From Nitrospirota bacterium (lineage in GTDB: Bacteria > Nitrospirota > Thermodesulfovibrionia > Thermodesulfovibrionales > SM23-35), in NCBI GenBank assembly GCA_040757455.1, contig JBFLXE010000002.1, positions 1 to 45,280 of the forward strand: a stretch of DNA of 45,280 bases, given 5' to 3'. Positions 3,223 to 45,280 of the stretch are shown in pieces. Every line of letters starts with the position of its first letter. Position 1 is the first letter of the stretch. The notes under the pieces were generated by a model, which worked only from the letters and a program-made list of their open reading frames with translations, was not told where the DNA came from and did not search any database. A program made the translations under genes and the position numbers.

Positions 3223-4390
3223 TACACAAAAAATGGATGCGGCTATCAGTGTTGCGGATCTGACGAAGATTTATAAGCTCTATGACCGGCCTTCAAACAG
3301 GCTGAAAGAGCTGTTTTTAAAGAAACCCCTTCACAAAGAGTTTCTGGCACTCGACAAGGTGACATTTGATCTGCCAAGAGGCGGCAATCTCGGAATTATA
3401 GGAGAAAATGGTGCCGGGAAAAGCACGCTTCTGAAAATTATCGCGGGGACGTTGTCCAAAACCTCTGGAGATGTCAGGGTAAACGGCAGGGTTTCTTCAT
3501 TACTTGAACTCGGATCGGGTTTTCATCCCGAATTTACGGGAATGGAGAACATTTACTTCTATGGAGCTTTGCTCGGTCTCAGCAGAAGTGAACTATCCAG
3601 TAAGATAGAGGAAATTGTGGATTTCGCTGAAATCGGAGACTTCATCAACTATCCACTAAAGACTTATTCATCAGGAATGTTTGTGAGGCTCGCATTCTCT
3701 GTCGCAACAGCCGTTGATCCCGATATCCTTGTGGTCGATGAGGCTCTATCGGTCGGGGATTTGTATTTTCAGAAGAAGAGCATAAACAAAATCATATCCT
3801 TTAAAAAACAGGGTAAGACCATCATATTTTGTTCTCATGCAATCTATTACATCAATCAGCTCTGCGAAAATGTCTTGTGGCTCAAGAACGGCAGGGTTGA
3901 GATGCTCGGACCTCATTATGACGTTACCCAGGCATACGAAAATTATCAACTCGAAAAGAAGTCAGACAGTAACGATGTGAGGCAGGACGAGATTTCAGAA
4001 GATATTTCCGATAAACCGGTTATCATCAAAGAGGTGAAGACCTTCCCGTTCCCGAATCTCAGAACCGGAGACAGCCTCAAAATAAAGATAAGCACGCTGT
4101 CCAAAAATGACTTATGTCAGTTTAAGCTTGCAATTATCCTGAAAAGAATAGACGGACTTGACATAACGAGCACTTACACAAGTGATACAAAACTCCTGCG
4201 GGGAAATCTTGAGGTGAATGTCGAGTTCCCTGCACTTCAGCTGAAAGCCGGAACGTATTTCATAAGATCGTTTCTCCTCGACGAACATATGCTTCATATT
4301 TATGATACTAAGGATTCTTTACCCTTTAATATCCCAAAAGAATCAATTGAGGTAGGAATAGTCGATCTTCCATGCAAGTGGATCATATAG
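3206..4390 (+). CDS. wzt: Polysaccharide ABC exporter ATP-binding protein with a C-terminal glycan-binding-type extension
   Basis: Walker A GENGAGKST, signature YSSGM, Walker B ILVVDEA. About 150 extra C-terminal residues, as in Wzt/TagH proteins that carry a carbohydrate-binding beta-sandwich. Confidence 0.85.
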   Translation: MPMYYDTQKMDAAISVADLTKIYKLYDRPSNRLKELFLKKPLHKEFLALDKVTFDLPRGGNLGIIGENGAGKSTLLKIIAGTLSKTSGDVRVNGRVSSLLELGSGFHPEFTGMENIYFYGALLGLSRSELSSKIEEIVDFAEIGDFINYPLKTYSSGMFVRLAFSVATAVDPDILVVDEALSVGDLYFQKKSINKIISFKKQGKTIIFCSHAIYYINQLCENVLWLKNGRVEMLGPHYDVTQAYENYQLEKKSDSNDVRQDEISEDISDKPVIIKEVKTFPFPNLRTGDSLKIKISTLSKNDLCQFKLAIILKRIDGLDITSTYTSDTKLLRGNLEVNVEFPALQLKAGTYFIRSFLLDEHMLHIYDTKDSLPFNIPKESIEVGIVDLPCKWII

Positions 4391-5574
4391 TCCAGAAGTC
4401 TGAGAAGAAGCGCAAAATCCTCTTTGTCCTGCCCACGAATACCTTTGGCGGCGCCGAGCGAGTCACATTCAATGTTCTTGGCGGACTCAGGTCATTTGAA
4501 GGAATCCTCTTAACACATAAGCCGATGAATAAATATTATGAATCTCTTAACGTAGAAATCTATAATTTTGAAGATTTCAACTGCCCCGCTCCTGATGTTT
4601 CACTCAGGGCGATACTGTCTTGCACGAAAACAATAAGAGATATTGCAAAACTTGTACATCCGTCGATTGTTTTCGGCGTCATGCATTTTGCCTCTCTTTT
4701 TGCAGCTCTTGCCAGAGATCTCTACCCCGGACTCCGCAGAATTCCAGCAATTACGAGCATTCATGGAACTTATTCATCTCATTTTGAAAGCGAAAATCGG
4801 CGGCCAACTTTTAAGGAAAAAATATTGATAAATTATCTTCTCAAAAGATCAAAAAATGCCGTTGTTCCCTCGCAGGGTATCAAATCTGACTTAGTTTTAT
4901 ACTTTGGCGTGAGGGAAGGAAAATTCAAGGTTATCTACAATGGCTATGATCTGGAATGGATAAGAAAATGCGCGAAGGAAGAAATTTCTATACCAAAGGA
5001 TTCACCGTGGATAATTACAGCATCGAGGCTCGGGCCGCCCAAAGATTTTTCTACTCTTTTACGCGCGTTCAGGATTGTTAGAAACCGCCTGAATGCGAAA
5101 CTGTTCATTATCGGCGAGGGGCCTTATGACCGGGATATAAGAGAAGAAGTGATAAAATTGGGACTCAACGGGGAAGTTCATATGCTCGGCTTTCAAGAAA
5201 ATCCATTTAAATATATTGCAAGATCGGACGTATTCGTCCTCTCGTCTCTGTCAGAGGGCCTGCCGGGATCGATAATAGAAGCAATGAGTCTTGGTATTCC
5301 CGTCGTCTCTACGGACTGTCCGTCGGGTCCAGGGGAAATTATAGAAACCGGGGAAAACGGTATCCTCGTTCCGGTCAGGAACGAGAAGGCTCTTGCGTCA
5401 GCATGTCTTTCCATACTCGAAAGCAATAGTTTCAAAATGCGCTTAGCAGCAGGAGGATTGAGTCGTGCCGAATATTTTTCGATTCAAAGGATGAACACGG
5501 AGTATGAAGAATATTTTATGACACTCATAAGTAAAAATAAAAATTCACGCAATATCAATCAGGGGGATGGATAA
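4372..5574 (+). CDS. Family 4 (GT-B) glycosyltransferase
   Basis: N-terminal ILFVLPTNTFGGAERV and C-terminal EGLPGSIIEAMSLGIPVVSTDCPSGPGEII, the GT4 sugar-donor-binding signature. Confidence 0.85.
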   Translation: MQVDHIVQKSEKKRKILFVLPTNTFGGAERVTFNVLGGLRSFEGILLTHKPMNKYYESLNVEIYNFEDFNCPAPDVSLRAILSCTKTIRDIAKLVHPSIVFGVMHFASLFAALARDLYPGLRRIPAITSIHGTYSSHFESENRRPTFKEKILINYLLKRSKNAVVPSQGIKSDLVLYFGVREGKFKVIYNGYDLEWIRKCAKEEISIPKDSPWIITASRLGPPKDFSTLLRAFRIVRNRLNAKLFIIGEGPYDRDIREEVIKLGLNGEVHMLGFQENPFKYIARSDVFVLSSLSEGLPGSIIEAMSLGIPVVSTDCPSGPGEIIETGENGILVPVRNEKALASACLSILESNSFKMRLAAGGLSRAEYFSIQRMNTEYEEYFMTLISKNKNSRNINQGDG

Positions 5575-40087: not shown

Positions 40088-40552
40088 TTAGACAAACAAT
40101 TTTTTTAGATTACTCAACCACACGATGTGGCTTTTCTCTTCGCGGATAATCTCGTCGACAATATCTTTTTCCATGACCATCTCGCGCAAAGTGTAATAGT
40201 AAAGCAGGGTTTCCCTTTCAAAACAAAGAGCGAAATGTATGGCCTCCGATGGGGTTTTGACATGCGCGAGAGAAGGCAGGCATTTGTCTTTACCGAGAAA
40301 AAATTCGGACTCGACAATCGCTCTCAGATAAAGAGTGGCTTCCTCCCAGCCCTCGGTTTCTTCTGTTATACTATTTTCCAGGTCAGAAAAACGCTTGCCG
40401 TGCTTCAGTTCGTGAGCGGCAAGCAACTCAAAGAGTTGTTTCAGTTCATGATTCACATGGAATCTTTTTGCCATCTCGCTGTAAAATTCATATCCGAGTT
40501 TTTCTGTCTGTACAGCCTGCTCAACAACTTCTTTTACCGAAAATTTTATCAT
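40088..40552 (-). CDS. Ferritin-like diiron protein (rubrerythrin-family four-helix bundle, no rubredoxin domain)
   Basis: Two E..H-type metal-ligand helices: QTEKLGYEFYSEMA...LAAHELKH and FERETLLYYYTL...IREEKSH. Confidence 0.75.
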   Translation of the reverse strand: MIKFSVKEVVEQAVQTEKLGYEFYSEMAKRFHVNHELKQLFELLAAHELKHGKRFSDLENSITEETEGWEEATLYLRAIVESEFFLGKDKCLPSLAHVKTPSEAIHFALCFERETLLYYYTLREMVMEKDIVDEIIREEKSHIVWLSNLKKLFV

Positions 40553-40636
40553 TCTCCAGCCTCTTGATTCTTAAGGATAATAAGAAATTATCCAGTGCTT
40601 ATCGGATATTTCCGCTTTCTAATTCAGAGAGAAAGT

Positions 40637-40834
40637 TTATATGATATCCTTTATATTGTCAACGGTGACGTATCCTTTTTCGAGCAGGAGAGACAGGGCA
40701 ATGAATCCTCCACAAGGCAGCGACTTTTCTTTTCTCTCCATAAAATCACAATCTTTTTCGTGAAAAGGACATGCGAGGCAAACAATCGAAACAATTTCAT
40801 CCTTTATATCAATACTTATCCCACCCATATGCAC
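40637..40834 (-). CDS. Small Cys-rich protein; the frame stays open 50 further codons upstream without a canonical start
   Basis: The track ORF starts at GTG 40834 (ATG at 40828). In-frame upstream sequence back to 40984 reads ..LCSRFCPYFKPDKDEGLACKG... The body contains CLACPFHEKDC..CGG. Confidence 0.45.
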   Translation of the reverse strand: MHMGGISIDIKDEIVSIVCLACPFHEKDCDFMERKEKSLPCGGFIALSLLLEKGYVTVDNIKDII

Positions 40835-41014
40835 GGGTGGAACGGATACGCCTCCTTTTAGAAGATTTAACAGAACTGTAATTCCCTTGCACGCAAGTCC
40901 CTCGTCTTTGTCCGGTTTAAAATACGGGCAAAATCTGGAACAAAGCTCTTTCTTTAAGTCAGTCTCTTTGATGACTTGTAAACCCTATTTGGACCAGATC
41001 AACGCGCCTAAAAC

Positions 41015-42181
41015 GTGGGAACAGGCATCTTCAATATCGTACAATATATTATGAGATATTTTCTAAATGAAAAAGCGGTGCTTAAGTGGCTGGAGAAACC
41101 TTCCCTTTATCACATTGCAAAAGATGATCTTTATGAACTTGATGATGACTCCTTCGATTTTATGAAAAATTGCTGTTCCACAAAAGGATGTCCAGGGGAA
41201 GACAGTGAATTCATCAATTATTGTTTCAGGGAAGGCATTCTCACCAGAAATGAAATCCTTTTAAAGCGCCCGCCCATTATCAAATCTCCTTTTCCTTCAC
41301 TTCGTTATCTTGAATTGCAGATAACAAACCTCTGCAATCTGAAATGCAGGCACTGTTATGTTGAAGACGATAAGATTTCCGAACTGTCTGTCAGCCAGAT
41401 AAGAATGATCCTCAAGGAATTTGAAGAGCTGCAGGGACTGAGAGTCCTGATAACAGGAGGCGAGCCACTCATGCATCACGAATTCAGGGAATTGAACAAA
41501 ATATTTCCTGAGTTCTTCGTAAGGAAAGTTCTGTTCACAAACGGGATCTTACTTAATAAAAAACTGCTCAGAGGGCTTAATGTCAATGAGATTCAGGTGA
41601 GCGTGGATGGCCTCGAGGCTGCACACGACTCACTCCGAGGAAAAGGTACATTCAAAAAGGCCATAGAGGCCGTAGTAAATTCTATCGACGCGGGTTTTGA
41701 TGTGGCTGTCTCGACAATGGTTCATACAGGAAATCTTGGGGACTTTAAGGAGATGGAAGAATTCTTCAAAAATATTGGTGTAAAATGCTGGGTTGTCGAT
41801 GTCCCCTGCGTGACCGGAAGGTTAAAGAAAAATGCCTCATTTCACCTGTCTCCGGAAATAGCCGGAGAATATTTTAAATATGGCTATGGCGGGGGGTTTC
41901 ATTCAGGTACAACAGGCTATGCCTGCGGAATACACCTCATGGGCATCATGTCCAGCGGTATGGTATCAAAATGTACCTTTTATGCCGATCACCCTATCGG
42001 GAAGATTGAAGAAGGTCTGCGGGAATGCTGGCAGAGGATAAGACCCGTGAAACTTGCAGATCTTAAATGCGATTGCGATGTCAGCGAGGAATGCCGGGGA
42101 GGTTGCAGATATCGGGCGCTACTCCTCGGTGATTCGGAGGGGAAAGACCTGTACAAGTGTTATTATTATGGTAAAATATAA
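41015..42181 (+). CDS. Radical SAM enzyme with a C-terminal SPASM/twitch-like Cys cluster and an N-terminal extension of about 90 aa
   Basis: LQITNLCNLKCRHCY (CxxxCxxC), GGEPL, and C-terminal CDCDVSEECRGGCRYR. Alternative start ATG 41051. Confidence 0.85.
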   Translation: MGTGIFNIVQYIMRYFLNEKAVLKWLEKPSLYHIAKDDLYELDDDSFDFMKNCCSTKGCPGEDSEFINYCFREGILTRNEILLKRPPIIKSPFPSLRYLELQITNLCNLKCRHCYVEDDKISELSVSQIRMILKEFEELQGLRVLITGGEPLMHHEFRELNKIFPEFFVRKVLFTNGILLNKKLLRGLNVNEIQVSVDGLEAAHDSLRGKGTFKKAIEAVVNSIDAGFDVAVSTMVHTGNLGDFKEMEEFFKNIGVKCWVVDVPCVTGRLKKNASFHLSPEIAGEYFKYGYGGGFHSGTTGYACGIHLMGIMSSGMVSKCTFYADHPIGKIEEGLRECWQRIRPVKLADLKCDCDVSEECRGGCRYRALLLGDSEGKDLYKCYYYGKI

Positions 42182-42231
42182 AAAAATTGGACACGAAGTC
42201 CGGATTCCTCTGGAAAGGGGGTGCACTGAGA

Positions 42232-42294
42232 ATGACAATCAGAAAAGTTTCAAGAAAGGTATCAACAACCTGTAAATGCAAAAGCTCCTGTTGA
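42232..42294 (+). CDS. Unannotated 20-codon Cys-rich ORF (MTIRKVSRKVSTTCKCKSSC); candidate radical-SAM substrate peptide
   Basis: Below the 60-aa cutoff of the track. ATG 42232 is preceded by ggaaagggggtg about 10 nt upstream. It lies 50 nt after the radical SAM stop and 42 nt before a strong terminator. Confidence 0.35.
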   Translation: MTIRKVSRKVSTTCKCKSSC

Positions 42295-42336
42295 ACTCAC
42301 AAAACACATATCTGCTCATTCATTGAATAAACGAAA

Positions 42337-42367
42337 AGAGAGGTTGGACGTCCCAACCTCTCTTTTA
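42337..42367. terminator. Bidirectional rho-independent terminator
   Basis: agagaggttgg (42337-42347), loop acgtc, ccaacctctct (42353-42363). T-runs lie on both strands (tttt on plus, ttttcgttt on minus). It sits between the converging rSAM/peptide unit and the ferredoxin gene. Confidence 0.8.
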
Positions 42368-42386
42368 GTTCAAAGCCCAAAAAATA

Positions 42387-42572
42387 CTATTCCAAGCTTA
42401 TTGCCTGAACCGGGCAAGTATCAGCGGCCTCCTGGCAGTCGCAGGTGTCACATTTATCAGGCCCTATGACATGGGCTTTCCCGTCATCACCTACTTTAAA
42501 TACCTGGGGGCAAAGCTCCTCACATGTTGCGCATCCCTCACAGAGATCTTCATTAACTACGGGTTTTGGCAT
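42387..42572 (-). CDS. Small ferredoxin (4Fe-4S type)
   Basis: 61 aa with CEGCATCEELCP and CDTCDCQEAADTCP. Perfect SD aaggagg. Confidence 0.88.
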   Translation of the reverse strand: MPKPVVNEDLCEGCATCEELCPQVFKVGDDGKAHVIGPDKCDTCDCQEAADTCPVQAISLE

Positions 42573-42658
42573 AAGTCTACCTCCTTAAGGTGTTTTTTAA
42601 AATCATTCCTTCATTCAAGCCCTGCGAGAGGGAGAATTACGGAAAGGTATTGGTTATT

Positions 42659-42686
42659 CTAATACATTGCAATGACAAATTGTCAA
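42659..42686 (-). promoter_or_regulatory. Candidate promoter (TTGACA, 16-nt spacer, TATTAG) overlapped by the 13-bp palindrome TGACAAATTGTCA
   Basis: The minus strand reads TTGACAatttgtcattgcaatgTATTAG. The perfect 6-1-6 palindrome is at 42673-42685. Confidence 0.35.
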
Positions 42687-42737
42687 AAAAATATCGTAAT
42701 AGCTTGCGAGGATCGGCATATCATCTTTGATGGCCTT

Positions 42738-42992
42738 TTACTTTCTCATTTCGAAATTCTTGATGAATTGACCGATCTGAACGCCGAGATAGACGCATTT
42801 GATATTGTTCATGCAGTCATCAGCGTCTTTTTTCTCAAGATGCGTTGTGAGTTCCTGGCCGTCTTTCTTGAATTTCACTATATAGGCATTCTTTGATTCG
42901 TCAAAATCCAGGCTAACCGAGATACCGTGCTTCTGGATTTCAGGATACATCTCGAGTATCTTGTCTTCCAGCGCAACTTTCGTATACGCCAT
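42738..42992 (-). CDS. Conserved-looking 84-aa protein of unknown function
   Basis: Start moved to ATG 42992 (SD ggggggag): MAYTKVALEDKILEMYPEIQKHGISVSLDFDESKNAYIVKFKK... Lies 39 nt after the ferritin-like gene stop, on the same strand. Confidence 0.65.
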   Translation of the reverse strand: MAYTKVALEDKILEMYPEIQKHGISVSLDFDESKNAYIVKFKKDGQELTTHLEKKDADDCMNNIKCVYLGVQIGQFIKNFEMRK

Positions 42993-43031
42993 AATTCTCC
43001 CCCCTTCTGCCACACAATCTTTTTATCTCGC

Positions 43032-43532
43032 TCACGCCCATGGAGTGCCGCCGTCGACAATGCTGCGCTCCTCCCACATGAACCAGCTTCCAGTATCCGA
43101 AAGAAAGAAGTATGTATTCGCGAAGATATCATAATGTTGTTGCTCTTCCCTTATAAGTCGTTCAAATAGTTTTCTCTCTTTATCTGTATTAGCCTGTGCC
43201 TCGGCATTCTTGTAAAATTCTATTCCTTCTTTCTCCATCTGCATCGCGATCTTGAATGCCTCGAGTTCATCCGTGGTTGCCTCCACCCTCTTCATCATCG
43301 AATCTTTCAACAACTGAAATATTGTCCGGACATTTTTCATGGGGCTCACCTCTTCAACTCCTATGTCGATTTCCTTGAATATCTGAGAAAGTACCTGAAG
43401 GTGTCTTTTTTCATCCTCCGTAATGCTCAGGAACATCTTTTTCCCCACTGGATGCTTGGTCTTCTCGGCCGCCTCGGTATAAAATTTTATTGCATCAGTC
43501 TCCATCTTGATGGCTATCTCAATTGCGTTCAT
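43032..43532 (-). CDS. Rubrerythrin-like ferritin-fold diiron protein (no rubredoxin domain)
   Basis: Internal duplication with ligand motifs AIKMETDAIKFY...ITEDEKRH and AMQMEKEGIEFY...LIREEQQH. Confidence 0.8.
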   Translation of the reverse strand: MNAIEIAIKMETDAIKFYTEAAEKTKHPVGKKMFLSITEDEKRHLQVLSQIFKEIDIGVEEVSPMKNVRTIFQLLKDSMMKRVEATTDELEAFKIAMQMEKEGIEFYKNAEAQANTDKERKLFERLIREEQQHYDIFANTYFFLSDTGSWFMWEERSIVDGGTPWA

Positions 43533-44333: not shown

Positions 44334-45280
44334 ATGGCCGTGTCCTGCAATTCATTATTACATGGCACTAATAAGGAAATCCGGACGGATTATACTAAGT
44401 CTATGCGTTGTCCATCATTTATACAGTTTTATCCGACTCTGGCATGTAATCAGAAGTGCAATTTTTGTTTTAACCAGAACATATACGAAGCGAAACATTT
44501 TACGAATATTGACAGACAAGACGCCCTGTCTTTAGTTTTAATGCTTTCTTACAAGGGCATCCCCGAAATAGACGTCCTCGGCGGAGAACCCTTTCTCGTT
44601 CCGTGGATTGCTGATTTCATCGCATACGCAACAAATCTTGGTATGCGTATCAATGTCAGTACAAATGGGAGTCTGCCTTTAGCCATCCATGAGATCGTGA
44701 AAATCAAGACTGATCATCTCAGTATTGGCTTTTCTCTTCACGGATTCGATGAAACTCATAACAGAATGACCGGGGCCGACAATTTCTCAAAAGCCCTGTC
44801 GGGAATCAATGCCATGATTGCATCGGGAATGAACCCGGTCGTGAAAAGCGTTTTGATACAGGAGAATATGAGAGAGATTGCCCGACTGGTTAAATTTCTT
44901 GAGAAACTCGGGGTTCGGAGATATTATCTTATGCATGAAGATATTATAGGAAGAAAAGGAGAAAAGTCCTTTTCTTTTCCTGACTTCTGGAGATTCTACA
45001 CTGCTCTCAGATCGAGGGGGGAGAAATTGAGTATAGGCTTTGTGGCCGCATCAGGCTTCTATGTAAAGGACGTGGATGCGAGAGGGAGATGCAATGCAGG
45101 CATCAAAAAGCTCGCGATACTTCCCGATGGGTCAGTCTTCCCCTGTAATCTCTTCTCGGGATTTAAGGAATTCAGCCTGGGCAATGTGTTCGATGAAGGA
45201 ATTGAAAAGTTATGGGCAAGCCCGGTTCTGAGACTTTTCAGAGAATTTGACGGCCGAAACAGGTGCAATAAAAGCAAATG
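44334..45280 (+). CDS. Second radical SAM/SPASM enzyme; the 3' end runs off the right edge
   Basis: Absent from the track because there is no stop in the window. My translation reads (MAVSCNSLLHGTNKEIRTDYTKS)MRCPSFIQFYPTLACNQKCNFCFNQ...VLGGEPFL...VSTNGS...CNAGIKKLAILPDGSVFPCNLF...RCNKSK. Starts at ATG 44334 or ATG 44403. Confidence 0.8.
   Translation, partial: MAVSCNSLLHGTNKEIRTDYTKSMRCPSFIQFYPTLACNQKCNFCFNQNIYEAKHFTNIDRQDALSLVLMLSYKGIPEIDVLGGEPFLVPWIADFIAYATNLGMRINVSTNGSLPLAIHEIVKIKTDHLSIGFSLHGFDETHNRMTGADNFSKALSGINAMIASGMNPVVKSVLIQENMREIARLVKFLEKLGVRRYYLMHEDIIGRKGEKSFSFPDFWRFYTALRSRGEKLSIGFVAASGFYVKDVDARGRCNAGIKKLAILPDGSVFPCNLFSGFKEFSLGNVFDEGIEKLWASPVLRLFREFDGRNRCNKSK

Follow-up and report, generated by a model that had tools for sequence, protein, structure and literature searches.

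A conserved 20-codon gene beside a radical-SAM/SPASM enzyme of Nitrospirota: a probable precursor-maturase pair of a modified-peptide system

The question raised by this locus is whether a very short open reading frame (ORF) next to a radical S-adenosylmethionine (SAM) enzyme gene is a gene at all and, if so, whether its product is the substrate of that enzyme. The window, which is the whole stretch of 45,280 nucleotides analysed here, belongs to contig JBFLXE010000002.1 of a Nitrospirota bacterium. On its forward strand it carries the gene of a radical-SAM/SPASM enzyme of 376 residues, hereafter rSAM1 (positions 41051-42181), followed by an ORF of 20 codons (42232-42294). The original prediction had taken the two for a candidate maturase-precursor pair of a peptide made by the ribosome and modified after its translation (RiPP), and three of the findings that it named as able to overturn this idea were examined; none of them did so. 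We consider it probable that the locus is a RiPP-type system in which the peptide is modified by the radical-SAM enzyme, and that it represents a family not described before. The kind of system, in which a short precursor is paired with a radical-SAM/SPASM maturase that has a recognition domain, is known; what is new is that the peptide, the enzyme and a partner protein with seven conserved cysteines (the 7-Cys partner) match no curated model, and that the motif was found in no searchable paper. Three items go beyond what had been proposed for this locus: the 7-Cys partner, a second radical-SAM/SPASM gene at 44403 (rSAM2) and the enzyme start at 41051.

The ORF begins with ATG 42232, 50 nucleotides past the rSAM1 stop (42181), and encodes the precursor peptide MTIRKVSRKVSTTCKCKSSC in 20 codons followed by TGA (42292-42294). 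Both this Cys-rich ORF and the purine-rich stretch upstream of it had been pointed out before and are present, the latter being the Shine-Dalgarno sequence AAAGGGGGTG at 42214-42223 of the forward strand. Loci with relatives of rSAM1 were gathered from collections of genomes and of metagenomes and from a contig index; a pattern-dependent scan of the genome collection with rSAM1 alone returned one true relative. Twenty-codon ORFs ending in CKCKxxC-stop were present at 28 non-identical loci, and a 29th, L095, ends in CKCSGSC. The consensus is MTIKKVSKKxSxTCKCKSSC, with invariant residues at M1, I3, K5, C14, K15, C16, K17 and C20. Codon-position statistics for 25 of the 29 peptide loci revealed that the fraction of non-consensus bases is 0.14 at first, 0.17 at second and 0.49 at third codon positions. 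Each of these 25 ORFs has exactly 20 codons and a Shine-Dalgarno sequence 6-9 nucleotides ahead of its start codon, which is ATG (23/25) or TTG (2/25); the stop codon changes among TAA (13), TGA (9) and TAG (3) at a position identical in all 25. Such third-position-biased variation, together with the fixed start, stop and length and the Shine-Dalgarno sequence, is the signature of a translated gene, and judged by this signature the small ORF is a real coding gene under purifying selection.

A chance ORF was rejected on four grounds: its recurrence beside the orthologous enzyme, the third-position variation, the fixed position of the stop, and its absence from the negative-control set, as none (0/44) of the 44 loci with unrelated radical-SAM genes, at most 37% identical to the window enzyme, has such an ORF. 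The 20-codon gene is called by no annotation pipeline. In keeping with the expectation that gene callers would miss it and that it would fall in no named family, 10 exact peptide variants were looked up among ~15 billion predicted proteins and none was found, and Pfam and NCBIfam searches with the peptide gave no match even at E ≤ 10. Nothing relevant came up in the literature, which was searched for strings of the peptide motif and for RiPPs of the radical-SAM kind from Thermodesulfovibrio or Nitrospirota. The peptide is among the best-conserved features of the locus, yet annotation has missed it.

The placement of the peptide gene varies among the loci. Where the enzyme is 43-70% identical to that of the window, the peptide lies immediately 3′ of the enzyme gene. 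At L027 it lies 2 kb downstream; at L028 it is convergent to the enzyme gene and beyond another gene; and at L037-L040 and L090, where the enzymes are 40-41% identical, it is upstream of the enzyme. Searches begun from the 7-Cys partner regained both the enzyme and the peptide every time. Overall, the peptide and the enzyme are co-located at 28 loci plus the L095 variant, in four gene arrangements, and at none of the control loci. Conservation of the short ORF at orthologous loci, on which the original prediction had hinged, was borne out by its coding selection as well as by the way it follows the enzyme through these rearrangements. On this comparative evidence, the peptide gene is genetically tied to the radical-SAM/SPASM enzyme down to ~35% enzyme identity, in anaerobic bacteria that are only distantly related.

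A separate observation concerns L001, a metagenome-assembled genome (Nitrospirae MAG Kmv42), in which the enzyme gene is broken into two ORFs (4001-4606 and 4663-5136), the split being a frameshift or an assembly error. Despite this split, the downstream peptide gene is intact and has a TTG start.

The most distant relatives divide the peptide into two parts. L095 and L096, each with an enzyme of 35% identity, and L097, with one of 33%, encode the peptides MKIKKVVLKKSSTCKCSGSC, MTIRKVAKMRNNGPGKFPFITRICKSGGKCS and MKIVKVMKTDVAQEKKINERAEKPPKAQPFIVRICSSSYRL, respectively. All three retain the N-terminal MxIxKVxK, and their C-termini vary, reading CKCSGSC or ...PFI[TV]RIC[KS]S.... An N-terminus that is kept and a C-terminus that is changed follow the pattern of a leader, as the recognition tag, and a core, as the modified part, and the three loci point to such a division in this family. 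In the window peptide, the putative leader would comprise roughly residues 1-13 and the core would be CKCKSSC.

The 20-mer might also be a functional small protein that works with the enzyme but stays unmodified, for example a three-cysteine metal- or Fe-S-binding peptide, a small subunit or an assembly factor. The coding conservation and the linkage suit any functional partnership, the core is as invariant as structural or metal-binding motifs are, and no protease or exporter lies nearby. However, distant relatives that keep the leader and change the C-terminus resemble a recognition tag with a substrate rather than a fixed metal site, and the enzyme has a domain similar to RiPP recognition elements (RREs) and peptide maturases as its nearest solved relatives, as described below. 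We regard an unmodified partner as improbable and keep to a modified precursor as the preferred reading.

rSAM1 belongs to the radical SAM superfamily, which is marked by a CxxxCxxC motif and a partial TIM-barrel core, with a PF04055 match of 72 bits against a cut-off of 29.5 (E = 8.5e-20). It had been described as a protein of 388 residues with about 90 residues ahead of the cluster motif. The extension stands, at 94 residues; the start at GTG 41015 does not, because all homologues begin with M-x-Y-F-L, which sets the start at ATG 41051 and the length at 376 residues. The SAM-cluster motif CNLKCRHC (41333-41356, forward strand), which has the form CxxxCxxC (C95-x3-C99-x2-C102), is invariant in 47/47 relatives; Cys conservation was scored over these 47 diverse cluster representatives, which reach down to ~35% identity. 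The SPASM domain (41924-42160, forward strand) was delimited by its TIGR04085 match and Cys conservation, and contains seven Cys in the motif C292-x10-G-x4-C308 ... C340-x-C342-x5-C348-x3-C352 ... C370. Six of them occur in 47/47 relatives, and C370 in 46/47. The auxiliary-cluster pattern CDCDVSEECRGGC that the original prediction had singled out is present within this full motif.

TIGR04085 matches the C-terminal 127 residues of rSAM1 with 28.9 bits (cut-off 27; model positions 1-93) and those of homologues with 34.6 bits. Pfam detected only the radical-SAM core in rSAM1, with neither PF13186 nor PF05402. The motif of the SPASM subfamily, Cx9-15Gx4C ... Cx2Cx5Cx3C ... C, binds two auxiliary [4Fe-4S] clusters; compared to its CxxC, the spacing in rSAM1 is CxC. 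By motif and profile rSAM1 is a member of this subfamily, and it is predicted to bind the clusters.

At E ≤ 1e-30, a search of 1.84 billion cluster representatives retrieved 86 clusters, formed at 50% identity, beyond which the scores fall to the generic radical-SAM level; this drop indicates that the rSAM1 family is discrete. Comparison with NCBIfam, which covered the 25 best matches, gave partial matches to WgkB (102 bits against a cut-off of 650), NirJ1 (87 against 650), AhbD (84 against 500), the mycofactocin maturase MftC (72 against 265) and MoaA (67 against 284). The sactipeptide models scored 52 bits against 850 (AlbA), 61 against 300 (SkfB) and 61 against 625 (StsB), and PapB and ScfB-related models were not among the 25 best matches. 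As rSAM1 stays far under cut-off with every curated family, whether of peptide or of non-peptide enzymes, it falls in no curated family. The closest protein in the PDB by sequence profile is the sactipeptide synthase SkfB (E = 4.5e-21), and CteB, SuiB and PqqE (E = 2.3e-10) were also matched. The AlphaFold model of rSAM1 has a mean predicted local distance difference test (pLDDT) score of 74, with high confidence over residues 1-250, and its best fold matches, over the full length, are SkfB (E = 9.6e-13) and then SuiB.

These comparisons bear on the alternative that the enzyme acts on a non-peptide substrate, like the heme or cofactor enzymes NirJ, AhbD and MoaA or a sulfatase maturase, and that the ORF is incidental. 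The partial NCBIfam matches do include NirJ, AhbD, AhbC and MoaA. However, their scores, NirJ1 among them, lie far under cut-off and cover the radical-SAM core only, no heme, molybdopterin or sulfatase genes are present in the neighbourhood, and the peptide accompanies the enzyme through rearrangements. A non-peptide enzyme was rejected on family scores, genomic context and the persistence of the peptide, and we hold it highly improbable. That the enzyme does not cluster with non-peptide families, as had been expected of a peptide maturase, agrees with SkfB and SuiB being its closest solved relatives.

Two side observations were made among enzyme relatives. P0012, P0029, P0030, P0049, P0089, P0096, P0107 and P0110 carry in-frame insertions of 10-56 residues right after CxxxCxxC (alignment A1 columns 114-171, corresponding to about position 41360 of the window), in which recurring strings such as PSPPFRKGGMGGF and LPSREG...RERVRVRG resemble translated repeat elements placed at one site. 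A more distant relative outside the family, of 28% identity, lies in a different cluster (L098, 2743-7233), together with an upstream ORF of 50 residues ending in ..YGRCPPSARCQTGL, an acetyltransferase and two ABC exporters; it is probably a separate modified-peptide family.

RRE or PqqD-like domains have a winged-helix fold, in which a three-stranded sheet is followed by three helices, and bind the leader peptide. The N-terminal ~70 residues of rSAM1 (41051-41260, forward strand) form a putative RRE-like peptide-recognition domain according to fold comparison. Residues 1-65 of the AlphaFold model, with pLDDT of 82-92, form a four-stranded sheet followed by helices, and the N-terminal 85 residues modelled alone likewise form four strands followed by helices, with a pLDDT of 82. 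The top fold match in the PDB, found with Foldseek, is TbiB1 with its leader (5v1v; probability 0.90; template modelling (TM) scores 0.54/0.52), in addition to the lasso B1 protein 6jx3 (TM 0.55) and the RREs of SuiB, LynD and CteB, all with TM of ~0.52-0.55. From these models, the N-terminal domain is likely, but not proven, to be an RRE.

The third component of the system is the 7-Cys partner, a protein of ~111 residues encoded on the reverse strand (40637-40972), divergent from rSAM1. Its seven invariant Cys are arranged in three motifs, CxxxCx[YF][YF]KP...CxG, CxxCxF....CDF and PCGG[FY] (alignment A7). A profile of the partner found no relative in Pfam, NCBIfam or the PDB, and the source annotation reads only “hypothetical protein”. 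The partner adjoins rSAM1 in most Nitrospirota-type loci. At L037 and L090 it is encoded by a separate co-directional gene upstream of rSAM1, whereas at L038-L040, and in 5/47 cluster representatives, partner and enzyme form one chain with the partner at the N-terminus. A fusion of partner and enzyme is strong evidence that both proteins work together physically, and the comparison of loci ties the 7-Cys partner to the same enzyme, sometimes within a single chain.

A Cys-rich protein that is always adjacent to the enzyme and belongs to no known family could itself be the true substrate, in the way that QhpC is cross-linked by QhpD, with some other role left for the 20-mer. However, the N-terminal fusion in several lineages suits a domain or subunit better than a substrate. 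At L095 and L099, moreover, the enzyme is kept and only a shortened partner of 47-72 residues lies ahead of it, and the conserved leader on the 20-mer would be left unexplained. We think it very improbable that the partner is the substrate. Of the alternatives, an unmodified metal-binding partner and the 7-Cys protein as substrate keep a small probability, and neither agrees with the leader/core pattern and the fusion as well as a modified 20-mer precursor does.

Several observations nevertheless weigh against a RiPP-type system. In seven of the ~40 family loci (L012, L017, L018, L019, L020, L030 and L031) the DNA that was fetched contains no peptide; some of the contigs concerned are short, and the peptide placed 2 kb off at L027 shows that distant placement is possible, yet these loci remain the main gap in the evidence for peptide-enzyme linkage. 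No leader peptidase or other protease and no exporter or transporter is conserved near the system, and a core invariant across phyla is unusual for antibiotic RiPPs. The PqqD-like element placed in the N-terminal region by the original prediction is upheld in so far as the best fold matches are RREs; however, the E-values of these Foldseek matches are weak, at 0.19 or worse, the domain has no Pfam match, and a sequence-profile search of the PDB gave chance matches only. The SPASM region of the rSAM1 model, which is metal-dependent, is of low confidence. The proposed chemistry is a guess.

The partner gene of the window belongs among these points as well. At the position of the homologous start, none of the codons ATG, GTG and TTG is present, and ATC (40972-40970) stands in place of the ATG seen at L007 and others; the frame is open back to a stop at 40985-40987. 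The gene-caller product P0343, which has 63 residues and begins at GTG 40834, retains only four of the seven conserved Cys. Either ATC serves as the start codon of the window partner, or the start has been lost.

For a precursor modified by rSAM1, we propose the following course. The RRE-like domain would bind the basic leader MxI[KR]KVxK, probably as an added β-strand, and this binding would place the CKCKSSC core in the active site. Reductive cleavage of SAM would then yield a 5′-deoxyadenosyl radical, which would abstract a hydrogen atom from a core residue, and the two auxiliary clusters may help to form the new bond. Our best guess for the product is one or more thioether cross-links between a Cys sulfur and a carbon of Lys, Ser or Thr, as in sactipeptides and ranthipeptides; this is a guess by analogy with the nearest relatives, and we give this specific chemistry distinctly less than an even prospect. 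A metal or Fe-S site is probably present in the 7-Cys partner, which, more speculatively, might act as a docking or electron-transfer module. Equally speculatively, the adjacent ferredoxin would be a plausible electron donor, and rSAM2 may introduce a further modification.

Comparison with known systems shows where this one is similar and where it departs. Like SkfB/SkfA, AlbA/SboA, CteB/CteA “SCIFF” and PapB/PapA, it combines a recognition domain, here a putative RRE-like one, with a radical-SAM core and an auxiliary-cluster domain. As in these sactipeptide and ranthipeptide systems, a short Cys-containing precursor adjoins the enzyme, and SkfB is the best PDB match. Unlike them, rSAM1 reaches none of the AlbA, SkfB and StsB cut-offs, its precursor has only 20 residues with an invariant seven-residue core and belongs to no named family, a 7-Cys partner is obligate, no protease or exporter is present, and the thioether is proposed by analogy only. 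The streptide-type enzymes SuiB/StrB and WgkB share the layout of RRE (putative here), radical SAM and SPASM domains as well as a core containing Lys; SuiB is the second-best fold match over the full length, and WgkB the top NCBIfam partial match, although its 102 bits fall far short of 650. The Lys-Trp chemistry known from these enzymes cannot apply, since aromatic residues, Trp included, are absent from the peptide.

The systems for pyrroloquinoline quinone (PQQ; PqqA/PqqD/PqqE) and mycofactocin (MftA/MftB/MftC) have in common with this locus a very short precursor (~20-30 residues) with a core invariant across taxa, a radical-SAM/SPASM enzyme with an RRE (again putative here), and an intracellular redox setting with no exporter. 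By contrast, the MftC model stays at 72 bits against 265 and PqqE appears only as a PDB match, the core contains neither Glu/Tyr nor Val-Tyr, no PqqB/PqqC or MftD/MftE/MftF homologues lie nearby, and the RRE-like domain is part of the enzyme chain instead of a protein of its own. QhpD/QhpC also pairs a radical-SAM/SPASM enzyme with a small Cys-rich protein, and Cys thioether chemistry would be plausible in both. However, the QhpD model gives only a trace match, 12.7 bits against 453, in the SPASM region of one homologue, and amine dehydrogenase genes are absent; some lineages here have the Cys-rich protein and the enzyme as one fusion, and there is a separate 20-mer with a conserved leader.

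The nature of the product can be approached from the same evidence. Because the core is invariant, no protease or exporter is conserved and the neighbours are redox-stress proteins, an intracellular cofactor-like or metal-/redox-active product is expected, rather than a secreted antibiotic; the conservation of the core is itself cofactor-like and not antibiotic-like. Taken further, the 20-mer could give rise to a new redox cofactor of peptide origin, or to a new metal-binding factor, of strict anaerobes, matured intracellularly by two radical-SAM/SPASM enzymes and the 7-Cys partner, and acting in the surrounding oxidative-stress and ferredoxin redox network. The strict anaerobes in question would be Thermodesulfovibrionia-type Nitrospirota and other lineages, and the network would comprise rubrerythrin-like proteins, ferredoxin, nitroreductase, superoxide dismutase and 2-oxoacid:ferredoxin oxidoreductase. 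We consider this extension unlikely, if worth entertaining. If it were true, the product would correspond to PQQ or mycofactocin, but with a Cys/Lys core as its building material. The family is found mainly in uncultivated anaerobes and offers a very small, tractable precursor as well as a new Cys-rich partner domain, and it might yield radical chemistry that is new for a Cys/Lys/Ser motif, or else a redox factor, likewise new, in the stress physiology of anaerobes.

The peptide gene further appears to have its own expression signals, predicted from sequence, namely a possible promoter, a stem-loop, a strong Shine-Dalgarno sequence and a terminator, which would favour more peptide than enzyme. 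The possible internal sigma-70-type promoter (42150-42177, forward strand), found by consensus scan, reads TGTACA-16-TAAAAT with an upstream TG and coincides with the last enzyme codons (..LYKC..YDII). At the equivalent position, the near-consensus TTTACA-N17-TATAAT occurs in L005, L010, L011, L092 and L093, and L003 also has a site there. Third-base conservation at the Tyr codons of this site is 0.78-0.79, compared to a gene mean of 0.56 ± 0.16, which is suggestive but not decisive of extra constraint at the nucleotide level. Such a promoter would, speculatively, give the peptide its own short transcript of ~180 nucleotides.

A 5′ stem-loop, TTGGAC-ACGAA-GTCCGG (42187-42203, forward strand), precedes the ribosome-binding site of the peptide and is common to the Nitrospirota-type loci, with an NNGAA loop (alignment A8). 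Changes on both sides occur in 4/6 pairs, and 89% of cells are paired, compared to 37-65% with slid partner columns. A second hairpin, CCTCT-GGAA-AGGGG (42207-42220, forward strand), could sequester the Shine-Dalgarno sequence; its pairing reaches 83%, and its covariation is weak. Both hairpins, and the terminator as well, appear in the minimum-free-energy fold of 42183-42372.

The terminator is a palindromic hairpin of ~14-15 base pairs, 6 of them G-C, at 42334-42366, with Ts after it on the forward strand. The hairpin that had been thought to close the unit is thereby retained as a terminator, with its extent corrected from 42337-42367 and 11 base pairs. Lying between convergent genes, it is predicted to be a bidirectional intrinsic terminator between the peptide gene (forward) and the ferredoxin gene (reverse). 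A strict scan of 29 loci found a hairpin with a T-run after the peptide stop in 17/29; in most other loci a terminator-like hairpin is visible by eye, its loop being longer or its stem mismatched. Even where the peptide precedes the enzyme genes, it has a terminator after it; a peptide-terminator-enzyme layout is common in modified-peptide operons and allows an excess of precursor. A search of 40500-43100 with Rfam assigned neither of the two small hairpins to a family; its one return, an miRNA match below threshold, fell on the terminator hairpin.

A hairpin of this kind after a short ORF also brings to mind a regulatory leader peptide, or attenuator, in which stalling at Cys or Lys codons would control the terminator. 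At L037, L039, L040 and L090 the partner and enzyme genes do lie downstream of the ORF, which is itself preceded by a promoter-like site. At most loci, the window included, the enzyme gene however comes first and the gene beyond the ORF is convergent, leaving nothing downstream to regulate, and the ORF's amino-acid sequence and exact 20-residue length are kept across phyla through synonymous changes, unlike those of attenuator peptides. We find an attenuator scarcely credible, and it was rejected because the window ORF is the last gene before the convergent ferredoxin gene, so that the required upstream layout is lacking. A modified precursor with its own expression signals remains the preferred reading.

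Beyond the system itself, the window includes only the start of rSAM2 (44403-45280, forward strand), whose translation runs past the window end. It has the cluster motif CNQKCNFC and no N-terminal recognition domain. A full-length homologue in L001 matches PF04055, PF13186 and TIGR04085 (53 bits). Against NCBIfam, rSAM2 scores 54 bits with PapB (cut-off 340) and 76 with not_ScfB (cut-off 855). An rSAM2 gene lies near the system in L001, L003, L010, L011 and L019 according to tblastn, and a more distant copy was recognized in L037 and L090 by its cluster motif and Pfam gene calls.

The Nitrospirota-type neighbours comprise two rubrerythrin-like proteins, a ferredoxin, a 91-residue protein, a nitroreductase and a 2-oxoacid:ferredoxin oxidoreductase, and some loci additionally encode an Fe superoxide dismutase or a flavodiiron protein. 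The window ferredoxin (42387-42572, reverse strand), a single-cluster protein of 61 residues convergent with the peptide (PF13370, E = 2.7e-11), has counterparts in L001, L003, L007, L010, L011 and L019. The 91-residue protein (42738-43013, reverse strand) has no family assignment and the conserved pattern ..HLEKKDADDCM.NIKC.YLG.QI..FIKNF; it adjoins the system in ~10 Nitrospirota-type loci, and at L028 the peptide comes directly after it on the same strand. An 85-residue gene product beside the system in L090 was considered as a homologue and rejected as not homologous. Absent from the window, a small cupin-like protein of ~112 residues, ending in GGHSEEGHHH, recurs beside the system in distant lineages, being encoded in L005 (3228-3530), L010 (2249-2512), L037 (2011-2352), L039 (2683-2946) and L090 (4414-4752).

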